A program made the position numbers and the translations under genes. This document shows, one piece after another, positions 2,809 to 62,476 of a stretch of DNA of 64,000 nucleotides (its first letter is position 1; every line of letters begins with the position of its first letter). The stretch covers positions 2,475,729 through 2,539,728 of the forward strand of contig OZ242020.1 in NCBI GenBank assembly GCA_965204875.1. The letters are read 5' to 3'. The notes under the pieces were generated by a model that saw nothing but the letters and a program-made list of their open reading frames with translations, did no database searches and was not told the DNA's origin. The stretch is from Candidatus Aldehydirespirator sp. (lineage in GTDB: Bacteria > Actinomycetota > Acidimicrobiia > Acidimicrobiales > Aldehydirespiratoraceae).

Positions 2809-3632
2809 AGATCTCCGGACCGGCCCTAGATCCCGGAGCCTCCCTGGCGCAGCCGGCGCTTGTCAATGGCATCAACCCGAACGCACAGCTCGGCGTCGAT
2901 GTTGGCGGTACCAGTATCAAGGGTGCTCTCGTCAACCTGAGCACAGGTCAGCTTGCAGGACGGATCCACAGCACGCCGACACCTGACGCGGCGACACCCG
3001 AGCAGGTGGCGTCCCTCATACGCCAGATCGCAGCATCCGAGAACTGGGATGATCGTGTCGGTGTGGCGCTGCCAGGGGTGATCACCGGCTCTCGGCTGTG
3101 TCACGCGCCGAACCTGTCCGCTGCCTGGGAACGGGACGGTGCACTGGACTGCCTTCGGGACGCGGGCGACGCCGGAACTGTGCTCATCAACGATGCCGAC
3201 GCCGCCGGGCTAGCGGAACTCACCTACGGCTGTTCTGATGGCCCTAGGGACGGCCTGACCATAGTGCTCACCTTTGGAACCGGCATCGGCAGTGCCCTGA
3301 TCCACGATGGCAGCCTCATCGCGAACTCCGAGTTGGGCGGGCTTCATGGTCCCGCCGGGCGGTTTGAGGATGTGGCATCGGGGCGCGCCATCTTGGAGGA
3401 TGAGCTGTCACCTGTGGAGTGGGCGCAACGCGCGCAGCCTTACTTCGACCAGCTGGAGACCATGCTCAATCCGGTCCGGTGGGTTCTGGGCGGGGGGCTG
3501 AGCGAGAACTTCCAGCAATACTCATCCCGCCTGAAGTTGTCCCAGCCGGTGACCGCGGCCCATCTCAGGCTGCATGCCGGAATCGTCGGGGCGGCCGCGG
3601 CGGTACAGCACTCGCGCTCAGCAGACAGCTAG
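2805..3632 (+). CDS. ppgK: ROK-family (polyphosphate) glucokinase
   Basis: GVDVGGTSIKGALVNL...STPTPDAATPEQVA and FGTGIGSALI motifs match ROK/PpgK kinases. Confidence 0.75.
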   Translation: MKISGPALDPGASLAQPALVNGINPNAQLGVDVGGTSIKGALVNLSTGQLAGRIHSTPTPDAATPEQVASLIRQIAASENWDDRVGVALPGVITGSRLCHAPNLSAAWERDGALDCLRDAGDAGTVLINDADAAGLAELTYGCSDGPRDGLTIVLTFGTGIGSALIHDGSLIANSELGGLHGPAGRFEDVASGRAILEDELSPVEWAQRAQPYFDQLETMLNPVRWVLGGGLSENFQQYSSRLKLSQPVTAAHLRLHAGIVGAAAAVQHSRSADS

Positions 3633-3774: not shown

Positions 3775-4530
3775 ATGAGGTTGCACGCGGTCCGGGATCA
3801 AGCGGCGGCCGCACAAGCGGCAGCCGACATCATTGAACGGTTCCTGAACGAGGCTGCGCCGGCGGTGCTGGGAGTCGCGACCGGCGCCACCATGGAGGAA
3901 CCCTTCGCTGAGGTCGTGCGACGCTACCGGCTGGGAAGGCTGAGCATGACTCGCACGGAGGTTTACCTGCTCGACGAGTACATCGGCCTCGAACGGCACG
4001 ACCCGAGCACATTTGCCAACACCGTCAAGCGGCTGCTGGTTCAGCGGACCGACCTGCCTGCGGACGCGGTTCATGGCCCGGATCCTCATGCTGCCGACCT
4101 GCATGCTGCATGCGAAGAATACGAGCGGCAGGTGCGCAGCGCACAGATCGGCCTGCAACTGCTCGGGATAGGAACGAATGGGCACATCGCCTTCAATGAA
4201 CCGGGATCGGTCTTCAGCAGCACGACACGTGTGGTGCGCCTGAGCCAGCGGACGCTGGCCGACAATGCAGCTATCTTTGCGTCCGGCACATCTATGCCCG
4301 CAACCGCGATCACCCAAGGCATCAGCACCATCCTCGCCGCCGAGAAGTTGCTTCTCATAGCCTGCGGCAAGCACAAGGCAAGAGCCGTCTCACTGGCCAT
4401 CGAGGGTCCCCTCAGCGAGGCACTGCCGGCCTCGGCGTTGCAGCTTCATCGCAACGTCACCGCCATCGTTGACGCAGCAGCCGCATCGCTGCTGTCCGAA
4501 GCCGCCCACCCGAACGAGCACTCACAGTGA
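3775..4530 (+). CDS. nagB: Glucosamine-6-phosphate deaminase
   Basis: LGIGTNGHIAFNEPGS and the overall SugarP_isomerase pattern. Confidence 0.85.
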   Translation: MRLHAVRDQAAAAQAAADIIERFLNEAAPAVLGVATGATMEEPFAEVVRRYRLGRLSMTRTEVYLLDEYIGLERHDPSTFANTVKRLLVQRTDLPADAVHGPDPHAADLHAACEEYERQVRSAQIGLQLLGIGTNGHIAFNEPGSVFSSTTRVVRLSQRTLADNAAIFASGTSMPATAITQGISTILAAEKLLLIACGKHKARAVSLAIEGPLSEALPASALQLHRNVTAIVDAAAASLLSEAAHPNEHSQ

Positions 4531-19822: not shown

Positions 19823-21174
19823 GAGCCTTCGCGGTTTTGTGGGATGGGGGGTGGTTGAGGGTCCCTGTGTGGGGGTCGAGGCCCTGCTGGAATCGGTTGT
19901 GTAAGCGACCGACGATCCAGGAGGGCCTCGATGGCTGCGGATGTTATGGGGGTGCGGTTGGGTTTGCCGCAGTTGCGGGTGTTGGGGGTTGTCTCGGACT
20001 CCCCGGAGCGGTTGGTGGTGGCTGTGGAGGCCACCTGGCGGCGGTTGCGGTGCCCTCAGTGCGGGTTCAAGTGCCATAGGGTGCATGACCGGCGCGATAA
20101 GCGGGTGCGTGATCTGGAGATCTCGGGGCGGGTGGTGACGCTGGTGTGGCGGCGCCGCCGGTTCCGCTGCGACGACTGCGGCAGCCGGTTTTTGGAGGAG
20201 CATCCGGCGTTCGAGGGCGGGTTGACGGGGCGGCTGGCGCGCAGGCTGGTGGCCGATGCCAGGGTCATGCCGGTCTCGGCGGCCGCGAGGCGTCACGGGC
20301 TGAGCTGGTGGCTGGTGATGGGCGTGCTCAGCTCCTGGGCCGGGCTTGTGGCTGAGCATCGCAGAAGCCGCGTGTGCAGGGTGCTGTTGGTGGATGAGAC
20401 CTCGATCCGCAAAGGGCATCGTTACGTGACCGTGGTCGCCTGCGGCGACACCGGCCGGATCCTGGGGCTGATCCCGTCGCGCACCACCGCCGCGCTGTCA
20501 ACGTTCCTAGCTCAGCAGGGGTATAGATGGTGCAAGCAGGTCAAGGTCGTGGTCAGCGACGGATCGCCCGCCTACAAGGCCGCCATCACCCAGCACCTGG
20601 GACACTGTCGGCATGTGCTGGACCGGTTCCACGTCATCAGATGGTTCACAGCGGGGCTCACCGCGGTGCGCCGCGACACCCAACGCCGACAGCCCCCGGG
20701 CGTCCAGCCTGTCTTTGACCGCGACGTGTTCCGAGCCAGGTTCCTGCTGCTACGCCGCGGCGACACCCTCACAGACTCTGACCGGCAGCGGCTCGACACG
20801 CTGTTCGAGGCGCACCCAAGGCTCCAAGCCGGCTGGGACGCGCTACAAGAACTCCACGGCCTCTACACCGCCGACGACCACCAAGGCGCCCTCGCCGCCC
20901 TTGACCGGTTCTGTGACCTCTACCAAACCGGCAAGCTACCCGAATACCACAAAATCGTAGACACCATCATCCAATGGAGCCCCGAAATCCTCGCATGGCA
21001 CCACACCAGCCGACCCAGCAACGGCCGCATCGAGGGCATCAACAACCTCCTACAAATCCTACGACGCACCGCCCACGGCTTCACCAACCCCACCAACTAC
21101 CAAACCCGAGCACTCCTCATAACATGAACCCAACCGACACCAGCAACCCCCATCCCACAAAAACGCGAAGGGCC
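19823..21174 (+). mobile_element. ISL3-family insertion sequence, copy 1 (1352 bp)
   Basis: Imperfect terminal inverted repeats GAGCCTTCGCGGTTTTGTGGGATGGGGG / GGCCCTTCGCGTTTTTGTGGGATGGGGG. The 8-bp target duplication AAGAAGAA is at 19815..19822 and 21175..21182. Confidence 0.9.
19931..21127 (+). CDS. ISL3-family transposase
   Basis: 398 aa. The N-terminal zinc-finger CPQCG...C....RDLEISGRVVTLVWRRRRFRCDDCG is typical of ISL3 transposases. Confidence 0.9.
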   Translation: MAADVMGVRLGLPQLRVLGVVSDSPERLVVAVEATWRRLRCPQCGFKCHRVHDRRDKRVRDLEISGRVVTLVWRRRRFRCDDCGSRFLEEHPAFEGGLTGRLARRLVADARVMPVSAAARRHGLSWWLVMGVLSSWAGLVAEHRRSRVCRVLLVDETSIRKGHRYVTVVACGDTGRILGLIPSRTTAALSTFLAQQGYRWCKQVKVVVSDGSPAYKAAITQHLGHCRHVLDRFHVIRWFTAGLTAVRRDTQRRQPPGVQPVFDRDVFRARFLLLRRGDTLTDSDRQRLDTLFEAHPRLQAGWDALQELHGLYTADDHQGALAALDRFCDLYQTGKLPEYHKIVDTIIQWSPEILAWHHTSRPSNGRIEGINNLLQILRRTAHGFTNPTNYQTRALLIT

Positions 21175-23467: not shown

Positions 23468-24819
23468 GGCCCTTCGCGTTTTTGTGGGATGGGGGTTGCT
23501 GGTGTCGGTTGGGTTCATGTTATGAGGAGTGCTCGGGTTTGGTAGTTGGTGGGGTTGGTGAAGCCGTGGGCGGTGCGTCGTAGGATTTGTAGGAGGTTGT
23601 TGATGCCCTCGATGCGGCCGTTGCTGGGTCGGCTGGTGTGGTGCCATGCGAGGATTTCGGGGCTCCATTGGATGATGGTGTCTACGATTTTGTGGTATTC
23701 GGGTAGCTTGCCGGTTTGGTAGAGGTCACAGAACCGGTCAAGGGCGGCGAGGGCGCCTTGGTGGTCGTCGGCGGTGTAGAGGCCGTGGAGTTCTTGTAGC
23801 GCGTCCCAGCCGGCTTGGAGCCTTGGGTGCGCCTCGAACAGCGTGTCGAGCCGCTGCCGGTCAGAGTCTGTGAGGGTGTCGCCGCGGCGTAGCAGCAGGA
23901 ACCTGGCTCGGAACACGTCGCGGTCAAAGACAGGCTGGACGCCCGGGGGCTGTCGGCGTTGGGTGTCGCGGCGCACCGCGGTGAGCCCCGCTGTGAACCA
24001 TCTGATGACGTGGAACCGGTCCAGCACATGCCGACAGTGTCCCAGGTGCTGGGTGATGGCGGCCTTGTAGGCGGGCGATCCGTCGCTGACCACGACCTTG
24101 ACCTGCTTGCACCATCTATACCCCTGCTGAGCTAGGAACGTTGACAGCGCGGCGGTGGTGCGCGACGGGATCAGCGCCAGGATCCGGCCGGTGTCGCCGC
24201 AGGCGACCACGGTCACGTAACGATGCCCTTTGCGGATCGAGGTCTCATCCACCAACAGCACCCTGCACACGCGGCTTCTGCGATGCTCAGCCACAAGCCC
24301 GGCCCAGGAGCTGAGCACGCCCATCACCAGCCACCAGCTCAGCCCGTGACGCCTCGCGGCCGCCGAGACCGGCATGACCCTGGCATCGGCCACCAGCCTG
24401 CGCGCCAGCCGCCCCGTCAACCCGCCCTCGAACGCCGGATGCTCCTCCAAAAACCGGCTGCCGCAGTCGTCGCAGCGGAACCGGCGGCGCCGCCACACCA
24501 GCGTCACCACCCGCCCCGAGATCTCCAGATCACGCACCCGCTTATCGCGCCGGTCATGCACCCTATGGCACTTGAACCCGCACTGAGGGCACCGCAACCG
24601 CCGCCAGGTGGCCTCCACAGCCACCACCAACCGCTCCGGGGAGTCCGAGACAACCCCCAACACCCGCAACTGCGGCAAACCCAACCGCACCCCCATAACA
24701 TCCGCAGCCATCGAGGCCCTCCTGGATCGTCGGTCGCTTACACAACCGATTCCAGCAGGGCCTCGACCCCCACACAGGGACCCTCAACCACCCCCCATCC
24801 CACAAAACCGCGAAGGCTC
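23468..24819 (-). mobile_element. ISL3-family insertion sequence, copy 2 (1352 bp, inverted relative to copy 1)
   Basis: This copy mirrors copy 1 (x maps to 44642-x). The 8-bp target duplication TCTATTTC is at 23460..23467 and 24820..24827. I found one difference from copy 1 (20465 g versus c at the position equivalent to 24177, Gly to Ala in the transposase). Confidence 0.9.
23515..24711 (-). CDS. ISL3-family transposase
   Basis: 398 aa, identical to the copy-1 transposase except G/A in GRIL(G/A)LIPS. Confidence 0.9.
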   Translation of the reverse strand: MAADVMGVRLGLPQLRVLGVVSDSPERLVVAVEATWRRLRCPQCGFKCHRVHDRRDKRVRDLEISGRVVTLVWRRRRFRCDDCGSRFLEEHPAFEGGLTGRLARRLVADARVMPVSAAARRHGLSWWLVMGVLSSWAGLVAEHRRSRVCRVLLVDETSIRKGHRYVTVVACGDTGRILALIPSRTTAALSTFLAQQGYRWCKQVKVVVSDGSPAYKAAITQHLGHCRHVLDRFHVIRWFTAGLTAVRRDTQRRQPPGVQPVFDRDVFRARFLLLRRGDTLTDSDRQRLDTLFEAHPRLQAGWDALQELHGLYTADDHQGALAALDRFCDLYQTGKLPEYHKIVDTIIQWSPEILAWHHTSRPSNGRIEGINNLLQILRRTAHGFTNPTNYQTRALLIT

Positions 24820-59510: not shown

Positions 59511-60686
59511 TCATGAGGTTCGCAGCCAGGCGATGGGCTGGCTCGAGGTGACCCGCTCCCCGGCGAGGGCCAGCATGCCCATCAACTCGCCGGCGAAGGG
59601 GCTGCGGACCTCGCGGTCGGCGACCACGCCGATCCGCTGACCCACCGACACCGCGGAGCCGACCTCGACCCCGCCGGCGTATTCGAAGATCCCGGCGCCG
59701 GGGCTGACGACGAGCCGCTCCGTGGCGAACAGGTGCTCGCCCTCGATGGCGGCCGCAGGCGCCGAGACCGGCTCCGCCAGGGTTTCCAGCAGGCTGTCGA
59801 GGTCGTCGGGAGTCGACACCTTCAGCGGCCGGCGGCTCTTGAGAGAGCGCTTGACCAGGCGGCTGAGCACCTCGCCCGGGCCCAGATCCACGAACGTCGT
59901 GAAGCCGTCACTGTCGAGTCGGGACAGGGTCTGGCGCCACCGGACCGGGCTGGTCAGCTGCGCTTTGAGGAGGTCCGGCCAGTCTGCCCCGCAGTCGTGG
60001 GCGGCGGCGTCGACGTTGGCTATCACTGTTCCCTGGGCATCGCGGAACTCGGTGCGGTCTATGGCTTTGGCGAGGCGCTCGCGTGCCGATGCCATGAACG
60101 GCGTGTGGAAGGCGCCTCCGACCTGTAGCGGCATGACCCGCTTGGCGCCCAGCTCTCGGGCCACGTCCGCGGCGGCGTCGATGGCCGCCGGCGCGCCCGC
60201 GATGACGACCTGCCCGGGCGCGTTGTGGTTGGCGAGCCAGACTTCGCCCATGGCTCGGCTGCAGGCGATCTGCACGTCGTCGTCGTCCAGCCCGAGGATC
60301 GCCGCCATGGTGCCGTCGCGCTCGTCGGCGGCGGCCTGCATGGCGTTGCCGCGCTCGGCGACCAGCGCCAGCGCGTCGTGGTATTCGAGCACCCCCGACG
60401 CCGTGAGCGCCGAGTACTCGCCGAGGCTGTGACCGGCGTGGCCGGCGGCCTCGCTGCCGAGGCGGGTGACGGCGTCGAGTGCCACCATCGACATCACGAA
60501 GGTCGCGAGCTGGCTGTTGCGGGTCTCGGTCAGCTCGCCGGCGTCCGCGGTGAGCAGCAGGTGCTCCACATCGCGGTCGGTGACCTCCGACGCCTCGCTC
60601 ACGAGCTCCCAGGAGGGATGGTCGATCCAGGCCTCTCCCATGCCGGGCTTCTGCGAGCCCTGGCCCGGATACATGAAGACGATCAT
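59511..60686 (-). CDS. fabD: ACP S-malonyltransferase fused to a C-terminal biotinyl/lipoyl-like barrel lacking the modifiable lysine
   Basis: FMYPGQGSQ...GHSLGEYSAL is the FabD core, about 300 aa. An ~85-aa tail follows: VVSPGAGIFEY...VGQRIGVVADREVRSPFAGELMGMLALAGERVTSSQPIAWL. Confidence 0.85.
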   Translation of the reverse strand: MIVFMYPGQGSQKPGMGEAWIDHPSWELVSEASEVTDRDVEHLLLTADAGELTETRNSQLATFVMSMVALDAVTRLGSEAAGHAGHSLGEYSALTASGVLEYHDALALVAERGNAMQAAADERDGTMAAILGLDDDDVQIACSRAMGEVWLANHNAPGQVVIAGAPAAIDAAADVARELGAKRVMPLQVGGAFHTPFMASARERLAKAIDRTEFRDAQGTVIANVDAAAHDCGADWPDLLKAQLTSPVRWRQTLSRLDSDGFTTFVDLGPGEVLSRLVKRSLKSRRPLKVSTPDDLDSLLETLAEPVSAPAAAIEGEHLFATERLVVSPGAGIFEYAGGVEVGSAVSVGQRIGVVADREVRSPFAGELMGMLALAGERVTSSQPIAWLRTS

Positions 60687-60905
60687 TCGATTGGATGCCC
60701 CTCCCGTGTGGCGCCCGTGCTCGGCGGGCCCGGTTCGTGTTCAGACTCGCCGCGGTCGCTCGGAGTTTCATGGCCGGCGACGCCCGCCCTTTCGTCAACC
60801 AGCAGCCAATCGAGGAGCGTGCCCGCAAGAGGCTAGAGGCTTCAGGCGGCGTCCGCAGACCCTGCAGGGTTGCCGCCGGGCGCGCCGGTAGGCTCGGAGG
60901 CGCAG

Positions 60906-60990
60906 GCCCGGATGGCGGAAACTGGCAGACGCAGCGGACTCAAAATCCGCCGCCCGCAAGGGCGTGAGGGTTCAAGTCCCTCTCCGGGCA
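60906..60990 (+). tRNA. tRNA-Leu (anticodon CAA)
   Basis: Hand-folded cloverleaf: acceptor GCCCGGA/TCCGGGC, anticodon stem GCGGA/TCCGC with loop CTCAAAA, long variable arm GCCC-GCAA-GGGC, T arm GAGGG-TTCAAGT-CCCTC. No encoded CCA. Confidence 0.9.
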
Positions 60991-61052
60991 CAGAACATCT
61001 CCTCTCCTGCCCCAACTCGTCGCCCTCTCCGGTCCCCTCCGGCAGAAGGAGG

Positions 61053-61081
61053 TTGCGTTGCGGGGGGGGGGGGGGTATTCT
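61053..61081 (+). promoter_or_regulatory. Candidate promoter TTGCGT-N17-TATTCT whose spacer is TGC plus a G14 homopolymer
   Basis: -35-like 61053..61058, G14 at 61062..61075, -10-like 61076..61081. It lies about 88 nt upstream of the FN3 gene start. Confidence 0.45.
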
Positions 61082-61168
61082 CGCAAGACGAGCGCACCCG
61101 CGCACTCCCCGGATTTGTGGTTCTGGGGCACATGAGGTCGGAACATCACCGACAGAAGGAAGGTAACC

Positions 61169-61936
61169 GTGATCAATCCAGCAACGCGCCCCTCTGCCCG
61201 CCGGTTGATGTTGGCTCTGAGCCTTCTGGCGGCGGGACTGGGCTATGTGGCCGTGTCACCGGCCGTGGCTCAGAGTCTTCAAACCAAGGCGCCCACCAAC
61301 GTGAGCGCCACTGCCGGTGACACCGAAGCCACCATCACCTGGCAACTCGGCGGCACTCACGACGGAGGGGCGTGCGGGGCGGAGCGCCACTGGGTCAGAG
61401 TCAGCGACGGCACCACCCATGCCGCCGTTGCCGTGTCCGCAATGCTCGGCCCGAGCGTGACGAGCTGGCACGTGCGTGACCTCACCGCCGGCACCAACTA
61501 CTACGTCAAGGTATGGGCTCACAGGGAGAATGATTGCGGCTACTCGCCTCCGGGCACGACGAGATTCACCACCAATGCCAGCGACGCTCCGGGGGATCCA
61601 TCCGCCGCCGCGCAGAACGGCTGGAGAGCGCCCCGCAACGTGAGGCGGGTCGCTGTGACGACGAGCGGCACCAGCGCAACGGTGACATGGCAGGCGCCTG
61701 GAGCACCGGGGCACGCCAAACGGTGTGCTGCCGGCAGCGAGTACAGCTGGCGCTTGGAGAACCTCACCACCGGAGCTCCTGCTCAGTACGAGAGCGTTAC
61801 GGAGACACTGACGGCACTGACCGACACGCTCACGGGACTGACCGTAGGCAACGAGTACAAGATCACGGTCTACGTCCACTCGTCGAACTCCAACTGCTCA
61901 TGGTCCAGGGGCAGGTCAAAGATCTGGACCCAATAG
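61169..61936 (+). CDS. Secreted protein with two fibronectin type III-like domains
   Basis: SD GAAGGAAGG and GTG 61169. Signal peptide LMLALSLLAAGLGYVAVSPAVAQ. Two ~95-aa units start APTNVSATAGDTEATITWQ and APRNVRRVAVTTSGTSATVTWQ, each with two Cys. Confidence 0.7.
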   Translation: MINPATRPSARRLMLALSLLAAGLGYVAVSPAVAQSLQTKAPTNVSATAGDTEATITWQLGGTHDGGACGAERHWVRVSDGTTHAAVAVSAMLGPSVTSWHVRDLTAGTNYYVKVWAHRENDCGYSPPGTTRFTTNASDAPGDPSAAAQNGWRAPRNVRRVAVTTSGTSATVTWQAPGAPGHAKRCAAGSEYSWRLENLTTGAPAQYESVTETLTALTDTLTGLTVGNEYKITVYVHSSNSNCSWSRGRSKIWTQ

Positions 61937-62068
61937 AACCGACCAACGGAGCACAGCAAGGAGGCTCGCTCGGGCTGTCACCTAGGTCCGGACCGGGTCG
62001 AACTCCCGCAAGGGCGGAGCCTCCGGCGTGCGCGTCGCCGGTTCGGGCGGGCGCGTAGAATGCTCGCC

Positions 62069-62356
62069 GTGTCGCGGGAGCGGATCGAGCGGCGGCTCAG
62101 GGGCCTCAACCGGCAGTTGCACGCGCTGAGAGGCGATCTGCGCGTCTGTGACGAGCAGCTCGCGCAGGTCGCGGACGAGGCGGCCGAGTCGCGGCTGCGC
62201 GCGCTCGTGTCCGAGACCCCGCTGGCCGAGCGCGAGTACCGCGAGGCGCGCCGCCACGCGGAGCGGCTGCGACGCCACCGCGACGAGCTGGCCGAGCGCG
62301 TCTTGCGCCTGGAGGCCGACCAGGACGACCTGCTCGACCGCTTCACCGCGCTGTGA
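62069..62356 (+). CDS. Small coiled-coil protein, hypothetical (possibly leaderless)
   Basis: The -10-like TAGAAT (62056..62061) ends 7 nt before GTG 62069. An in-frame alternative ATG is at 62060. The protein is Arg/Glu/Leu-rich and looks helical. There is no homology I can name. Confidence 0.45.
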   Translation: MSRERIERRLRGLNRQLHALRGDLRVCDEQLAQVADEAAESRLRALVSETPLAEREYREARRHAERLRRHRDELAERVLRLEADQDDLLDRFTAL

Positions 62357-62476
62357 GCGGTGGCATCACCCGCTTGTATCGCACTCAGAACGGCCCGATG
62401 TCGGGGACGTTGCGAAGCATGTGAGTAGCGGTGGCATAGGCATACCCGCATAGATTGCATCGCCGTGGCGAAGGTG

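Follow-up and report, generated by a model that had tools for sequence, protein, structure and literature searches.

SSR-driven phase variation is textbook biology of host-adapted pathogens. In the promoter-spacer switches of Neisseria meningitidis porA and opc, a G/C homopolymer of about 9 to 14 nt reportedly lies between the -35 and -10 hexamers, and the length of the spacer is said to set transcription, with 17 nt giving high expression. Both switches, poly-G at porA and poly-C at opc, are cited in PMC5084427 (van der Ende 1995; Sarkari 1994).

A first-pass annotation of the DNA studied here took promoter-spacer switching to be undescribed in high-GC Actinobacteria. This was wrong, since related cases have been reported in Cutibacterium (Propionibacterium) acnes (PMC4746626), in Mycobacterium tuberculosis (PMC11898584), and in Gardnerella and Bifidobacterium (PMC11287997, PMC9187656). 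C. acnes carries 54 variable G/C tracts, of which two-thirds lie upstream of genes; HPT_37 occupies the -35/-10 spacer of PPA1943, where C5 and C7 are associated with a 2-fold difference in expression (PMC4746626). Regulatory homopolymer phase variants occur in M. tuberculosis at the espACD promoter (polyA) and in the espR leader (7G) (PMC11898584), and a G11 tract of Bifidobacterium breve was present as 37% G11 and 60% G12 in a single-colony culture (PMC9187656). Further, mismatch repair of the NucS type leaves indels unrepaired (PMC7015689). Our full-text literature search returned nothing on SSR phase variation in Acidimicrobiia. To our knowledge, SSR phase variation in Actinomycetota has been described only in host-associated species, namely C. 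acnes, M. tuberculosis, Bifidobacterium, and Gardnerella.

Here, we analyze a 64-kb window (the whole stretch of DNA under study, 64,000 nucleotides) in which a G14 homopolymer lies upstream of a gene for a tandem-FN3 protein. The locus is like porA and opc in that a long G run stands between -35-like and -10-like hexamers of a gene for a surface or secreted protein, with 17-nt spacing. It is unlike them in its host, an uncultured, free-living, high-GC member of the Acidimicrobiales, in its weaker hexamers, in being a candidate switch, and in its product, a soluble tandem-FN3 protein rather than an outer-membrane protein. With C. acnes it shares a phylum, and the C. acnes tracts are almost all G/C, with one in a spacer where expression differs and some at indel sites; HPT_37, however, is short (C5/C7), concerns a metabolic gene, and varies in a clade-linked manner (PMC4746626), whereas the tracts considered here are 13 to 14 nt long, tied to one secreted protein family, and found in an environmental lineage. 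M. tuberculosis is likewise a high-GC actinobacterium whose regulatory homopolymer indels tune a secretion-related function, but its tracts, at 7 nt, are short, and they work by an UP-like contact or via the structure of the 5'UTR instead of by -35/-10 spacing (PMC11898584). Mismatch repair in this species leaves indels uncorrected (PMC7015689). Also within the Actinomycetota are the G10-G12 tracts of the B. breve pilus and of Gardnerella, which control surface structures and for which length heterogeneity has been measured; both organisms are host-associated (PMC9187656, PMC11287997), and the B. breve tract is intragenic and of the frameshift type (PMC9187656). The mechanism itself is already known, including in Actinomycetota; what appears to be new is a candidate in free-living Acidimicrobiia whose tract recurs in one secreted family and sits on an acquired cassette.

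RESULTS

A G14 homopolymer fills the spacer of a promoter-like site

Positions 61053-61081 of the window (+ strand) read TTGCGT-TGC-G14-TATTCT. The -35-like hexamer TTGCGT (61053-61058) matches TTGACA at 3/6 positions and keeps the TTG, and the -10-like hexamer TATTCT (61076-61081) is a 4/6 match that fits TANNNT. Between them, TGC (61059-61061) and the tract GGGGGGGGGGGGGG (61062-61075), the proposed slippage-prone element, together make up a spacer of 17 nt. The arrangement is as the first-pass annotation had described it, though the hexamer pair is weak, scoring 7/12 in total, and a sigma-70 scan, which needs 9/12, called no promoter around the tract. The annotation was also correct in stating that the 64 kb hold no comparable homopolymer. 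G14 is the sole run of at least 7 nt in the window and lies far above background length; the next-longest runs are C6 (n = 8) and G6 (n = 5), and an i.i.d. model of a 64-kb window at 69% G+C expects 0.03 G/C runs of at least 14 nt.

Actinobacterial sigma-A promoters are defined mainly by TANNNT. The two strands of the window together hold 120 copies of this motif, and TTGNNN-N17-TANNNT is found three times in the same 128 kb, the G14 site being one of the three. Further, TATTCT is the sole TANNNT in the 177-nt intergenic region between the upstream tRNA-Leu gene and the FN3 gene (60992-61168). Taken together, the rarity of both motifs and the unique position of TATTCT indicate that the placement of the tract is far from random. 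The view that the tract occupies the 17-nt spacer of the only promoter-like site upstream of a secreted FN3 gene is supported. Transcription is predicted to start at about 61087-61089, downstream of TATTCT. The assembled tract length may be off by about 1, given the long-read metagenome source.

Judging by neighboring sequences, the lineage uses canonical -10 boxes, often with no recognizable -35. In a neighboring 98-aa gene, TAGAAT stands directly before the start codon with no suitably spaced TTG, and TACAAT has the same place in its orthologues. Because other promoters in this genome appear to lack a -35, spacing may count less here than it does in Neisseria. On the minus strand the tract reads as C14, and a function of this C14 as an element of the divergent fabD gene was ruled out, because the tRNA lies in between and the conserved fabD leader is elsewhere.

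The downstream gene is predicted to encode a secreted tandem-FN3 protein

The FN3 gene (61169-61936, + strand) encodes 255 aa and begins with a GTG start codon, 5 nt after the Shine-Dalgarno sequence GAAGGAAGG (61155-61163). Its earlier description as a signal-peptide-bearing, double-FN3 protein gene was borne out. Indeed, Pfam fn3 matches the protein in two stretches (3.8e-11), and an AlphaFold2 model based on a 19-sequence alignment (pLDDT 77) has an N-terminal hydrophobic helix (residues 10 to 24) followed by two beta-sandwich domains. Foldseek searches with this model match generic tandem FN3 pairs only, and family alignments agree with the tandem-FN3 assignment. The signal peptide ends in AVA, followed by Q, at about residue 35. 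The protein has conserved Cys residues, and no anchor motif was found in it. Both the sequence and the model indicate that the product is secreted.

GC3 of the FN3 gene is 0.78, compared with 0.91 to 0.95 in the neighboring genes, which fits horizontal acquisition from a lower-GC donor. The protein is present on no other contig in a collection of 5.8 billion proteins, and its 90% cluster has a single member. A profile search of 1.8 billion cluster representatives returned mostly giant multi-FN3 proteins and says little about so small a family. A scan of viral contigs yielded no relative of the FN3 family, and a phage-moron origin of the gene thus has no support.

The FN3 gene lies on a putative insertion beside tRNA-Leu

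The cassette with the FN3 gene stands directly 3' of a tRNA-Leu(CAA) gene (60906-60991, + strand; called by ARAGORN, and at 53 bits by the Rfam tRNA model). FabD orthologues that are 80 to 84% identical to that of the window occur in many Acidimicrobiales/Acidimicrobiaceae metagenome chromosomes, and in loci L007 to L010 the same tRNA-Leu adjoins fabD. Loci L008, L009, and L010 share the order fabD (divergent), tRNA-Leu(CAA), the 98-aa gene, an ANTAR response regulator gene, and polA, with the 98-aa gene beginning within about 60 nt of tRNA-Leu. These three fabD-tRNA-Leu loci contain no FN3 gene and no homopolymer of at least 7 nt. In the window, the orthologue of the 98-aa gene is found at 62060-62350 (tblastn), and polA starts at 62465. 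We read the intervening DNA of about 1 kb (approximately 60992-62035, + strand) as a single-gene insertion comprising the promoter-like site with its tract, the FN3 gene, and a structured 3' end, because both gene and tract are missing at the same tRNA-Leu site in relatives.

On this comparison, the FN3 cassette is acquired accessory DNA, in support of the earlier suggestion that accessory DNA sits directly beside the tRNA. The comparison with related strains that had been proposed for tract length therefore speaks for insertion but offers no comparison of lengths, the closest loci (80 to 84% FabD identity) lacking gene and tract alike. As a separate observation, the ANTAR gene of L008 to L010 is missing at 62356-62465 of the window and was found nowhere in the 64 kb by tblastn.

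Unlike a tRNA-linked integrative genomic island, the insert holds one gene and no integrase. No clear att-like direct repeats were found, and there is no copy of the tRNA 3' end, only one of the variable arm. This 15/16 copy of the tRNA-Leu variable arm (60953-60968) lies at 62005-62019 (+ strand) and has a local alignment score of 25, compared with 15.8 +/- 2.4 for shuffled sequences, of which 0/500 reach 25. This copy, at the right end of the insertion, may represent an att-like repeat that has decayed; extending the alignment gave an unconvincing result. In L007, an island with a PLD-helicase (PLDc_2-helicase) gene and an N6_Mtase methylase gene lies 3' of the tRNA-Leu (L007:1-4484). In L008, TCCGGGCACC is duplicated 8 nt after the tRNA-Leu. 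Judging by events in the window, L007, and L008, insertions seem to recur on the 3' side of this tRNA-Leu.

Several other features of the window were recorded. At 19931-21127 (+ strand) and 23515-24711 (- strand) there is an inverted pair of ISL3-family transposase genes that are 99.9% identical. The identity continues for 109 nt on the outer side and 47 nt on the inner side, the copies are separated by about 2.4 kb, and the pair resembles a composite transposon. FabD (59511-60686, - strand) has 391 aa in the window and in nearly all relatives. Pfam Acyl_transf_1 covers residues 3 to 290 only, and a conserved C-terminal extension of about 100 aa falls outside any assigned family. A GTTCAGACTCGC-like motif at about 60738-60755, in the fabD leader/promoter, is conserved in L007 and L008 despite divergence around it and may serve the fab operon as an operator or as a 5'UTR element.

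A G13 tract occupies the equivalent position at a homologous gene

The FN3 family is small. Besides SAR202 Chloroflexi, homologues were located by a genome scan in two other chromosomes of the Acidimicrobiales (OZ220474 and OZ219783), each of which has at least two copies. One homologue, in locus L003 of an Acidimicrobiales MAG chromosome (OZ220474.1), is 42% identical to the FN3 protein of the window and has a G13 tract at 3903-3915, 56 to 68 nt upstream of its ATG. This tract lies inside TTGTCG-N17-TAGATT (3898-3926), which has a TGn extended -10 and is the sole TTGNNN-N17-TANNNT on either strand of the 8.7-kb locus. The -10 region of L003, GTGGTAGATT, is homologous to GTGGTAGAGT, found upstream of both tandem paralogues in OZ219783 with no tract, and this match supports TAGATT as the real -10 of the L003 homologue. 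The two tracts also resemble each other in their 5' flanks, with TTGCGTTGC-G14 in the window and TTGGGTTGTC-G13 in L003, both fitting TTGsGTTG(T)C-Gn. The L003 tract is not beside a tRNA. The neighboring upstream gene encodes a giant PKD/Calx-beta/He_PIG repeat protein.

The presence of G13 and G14 tracts with exactly 17-nt spacing at homologous genes of two genomes argues strongly against chance and against an assembly artifact, the latter being an outcome that the first-pass annotation had allowed for. The two lengths, at loci 42% identical, are also the only comparison of tract length. The 138 kb of fetched DNA includes 13 family genes, and at 3 of these a G/C run of at least 9 nt was found within -150 to +30 of the start, whereas 0.05 would be expected (Poisson P of about 2e-5, or about 1e-3 when the discovery locus is left out).

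Tracts early in a coding sequence occupy the classic position for a frameshift-type switch. The FN3-family gene of L018, the third of the three cases, has a C9 run (3020-3028) at codons 7 to 9 (Ala-Pro-Pro-Pro), on a contig with a coverage of only about 2x; L016 has no tract at the orthologous position. Similarly, no tract was found at the FN3-family gene of L001 (OZ220474) or at either copy in L019 (OZ219783), indicating that the tract is not obligatory in the family. The family profile, run against metagenomes, picked up SAR202-like relatives only, and these lack an upstream tract.

A further G13 in OZ219783.1 (L019:1216-1228, the same site as L002:1215-1227) lies 2.7 kb upstream of two tandem FN3 paralogues. 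It was rejected as a promoter tract because no -35/-10 pair is recognizable on either strand. Its surroundings are repeat-rich and accessory, with a 72-nt tandem repeat at 1570-1750 and genes for HipA and a nucleotidyltransferase nearby.

Two other arrangements in the fetched loci were noted. In L001 (OZ220474), the Shine-Dalgarno sequence of the FN3 paralogue is immediately preceded by a hairpin with a perfect 15-bp stem, GTTGTGCCCCCCGGG-TTCG-CCCGGGGGGCACAAC (about 3880-3915), and no promoter-like site is visible between this hairpin and the paralogue. On a SAR202-like contig (L013:3814-4010, MKWU01008794.1), C14 (3892-3905) and C15 (3931-3945) runs lie inside a small ORF. This ORF starts with ATG at 3814 after a good Shine-Dalgarno sequence, includes ...ITPPPPTKVLITHRTPPPPQ..., and ends in a TGA that overlaps (ATGA) with the start codon of a signal-peptide ORF downstream; the tracts could be a frameshift switch that acts through translational coupling. 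On the opposite strand, a TANNNT directly follows each G tract. The tract site is 130 to 185 nt from the contig end, where an artifact is possible.

Predicted RNA and DNA structure around the tract and the gene

The RNA fold of 60992-61095 is a long hairpin of -47 kcal/mol in which the G tract pairs with an upstream CUCCUCUCCU stretch; UAUUCU comes directly after the hairpin. This hairpin is no better than those of shuffled sequences (z = -0.83), the L003 tract region has no comparable structure (z = +1.1), and a terminator scan found no terminator at the tract site. A function of the tract as an intrinsic terminator or hairpin of tRNA-Leu is not supported on these grounds. When run with its gquad option, ViennaRNA places a 2-layer G-quadruplex in the tract (++.++.++.++). 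A canonical 3-tetrad G-quadruplex was discarded as a candidate, since it needs at least 15 nt, more than either G14 or G13 offers. Within 60650-62150, Rfam models matched the tRNA only, and the fold of the FN3 5'UTR is no better than shuffles (z = +0.72).

At the other end of the gene, a long imperfect hairpin spans 61936-62045 (+ strand; -53.3 kcal/mol, z = -2.2). As modeled, this structured 3' region is probably a terminator or an insulator, placed ahead of the 98-aa gene and its leaderless promoter (TAGAAT, 62056-62061).

DISCUSSION

We propose that G14 is the slippage-variable spacer of a sigma-A-type promoter, forming a porA/opc-type slipped-strand switch for an acquired, secreted tandem-FN3 gene, and we put the probability of this reading at roughly 55%. 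It is supported by the placement of the tract, its recurrence in L003, the enrichment at the level of the family, the secreted product, and the accessory cassette. A secreted product, an accessory cassette, and a small multi-copy family are typical of phase-variable genes. Such switching is plausible in the phylum, given the blindness of NucS repair to indels, the G11/G12 mix in B. breve, and the spacer tract in C. acnes.

In the proposed switch, slipped-strand mispairing at the 14-G run during replication would lead to the gain or loss of a G and would thereby alter the distance between TTGCGT and TATTCT. The assembled 17-nt spacer is the predicted ON state of the promoter. A spacer of 16 or 18 nt would give a weaker promoter, and one of at most 15 or at least 19 nt would leave it essentially OFF. 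A clonal population would then be a mix of cells with and without the FN3 protein, as at a contingency locus. We infer that the promoter is active, that the tract varies in length, and that expression follows tract length. Weak hexamers, a negative sigma-70 scan, local promoters that lack a -35, and paralogues that lack a tract all count against the switch, and read-through from tRNA-Leu could be an alternative source of FN3 expression.

The same site could also be a promoter with a static spacer, the tract having come in with the cassette as a by-product that is neutral or drifts slowly, its length differing between lineages but switching nothing. The C. acnes tracts offer a precedent, their lengths having tracked clades in a way that the authors ascribed to slow accumulation rather than active modification (PMC4746626); some paralogues without a tract, and the many local promoters that seem to be -10-only, where spacing may matter little, point in the same direction. 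We nevertheless consider a static spacer unlikely. Under neutral decay, interruptions of the run would be expected, and yet a run of 13 to 14 nt, extreme next to a maximum of 6 elsewhere in the window, is kept uninterrupted at two homologues with 42% protein identity, at exactly 17-nt spacing in both; moreover, G tracts of at least 11 nt are highly unstable in an actinobacterium (PMC9187656). Doubts about the tract itself weigh far less. The chromosome is metagenome-assembled, homopolymer length is the weakest point of a long-read consensus, and the contig with the L018 C9 run has only 2x coverage, all of which would fit a sequencing or assembly artifact such as two-color-chemistry poly-G or a homopolymer miscall. 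The tract is, however, internal to a 3.05-Mb contig with unique sequence on both sides, and an equivalent tract stands at the homologous promoter of a different genome, where an artifact would not be expected to land in a 17-nt spacer again. An artifact is thus very improbable, and doubt is restricted to the exact length (+/-1).

A structural role would place the tract in the trailer of tRNA-Leu or in a longer FN3 leader, where a hairpin or terminator formed with CUCCUCUCCU, or a two-tetrad G-quadruplex, would modulate termination or translation. The G-repeat of Helicobacter pylori tlpB and the 7G leader of M. tuberculosis espR are analogues of such a role. The espR tract works via the 5'UTR (PMC11898584), and both the -47 kcal/mol hairpin (60992-61095), in which the pyrimidine stretch pairs with the G tract ahead of UAUUCU, and the 2-layer G-quadruplex that ViennaRNA predicts within the tract are consistent with structure. 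Set against this are the z scores of that hairpin (-0.83) and of L003 (+1.1), the empty terminator scan, and tract lengths below the 15 nt of a 3-tetrad G-quadruplex. The TTG and TANNNT flanks at 17 nt in both loci would also be left unexplained, and we regard a structural role as quite improbable. We give similarly little credence to the tract being a scar or hotspot of the insertion, that is, a rearrangement-junction homopolymer beside a tRNA with incidental promoter-like flanks. It does lie less than 70 nt from the left edge of the insertion, and homopolymeric tracts mark rearrangement sites in C. acnes (PMC4746626). The 3' side of tRNA-Leu has been hit recurrently (the L007 island and the L008 TCCGGGCACC duplication), and the L019 G13 sits outside a recognizable promoter in a repeat-rich accessory region. 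A scar is hard to reconcile, however, with the L003 tract, which is away from any tRNA and yet holds the same position relative to the homologous gene and its -10, or with an insertion that has no integrase and no clear att repeats.

A wider interpretation, which we offer tentatively and hold to be rather doubtful, is that a family-linked, selectively maintained contingency switch serves a small secreted tandem-FN3 family across more than one phylum of uncultured, free-living bacteria. Its possible examples, to be taken with the same reserve, would be the G14 and G13 spacers in Acidimicrobiia, the 5'-coding C9, and the C14/C15 coupled leader ORF beside a SAR202-like member.

Conceptually, a spacer switch at this locus would be a modest advance, since it would work by an established mechanism. 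In practice, it would provide a rule for spotting contingency loci in MAGs, and per-read homopolymer lengths are already in the source metagenomes. If the G14 and G13 tracts are switches, free-living soil or water actinobacteria would diversify secreted-protein expression by means of hypermutable promoters, and such a switch could move with its gene cassette in horizontal transfer. If the wider, multi-phylum interpretation is true, an extracellular binding protein would be turned on and off stochastically within environmental communities, with phages or grazers as one possible source of pressure, and contingency loci would reach well beyond host-associated pathogens and commensals.
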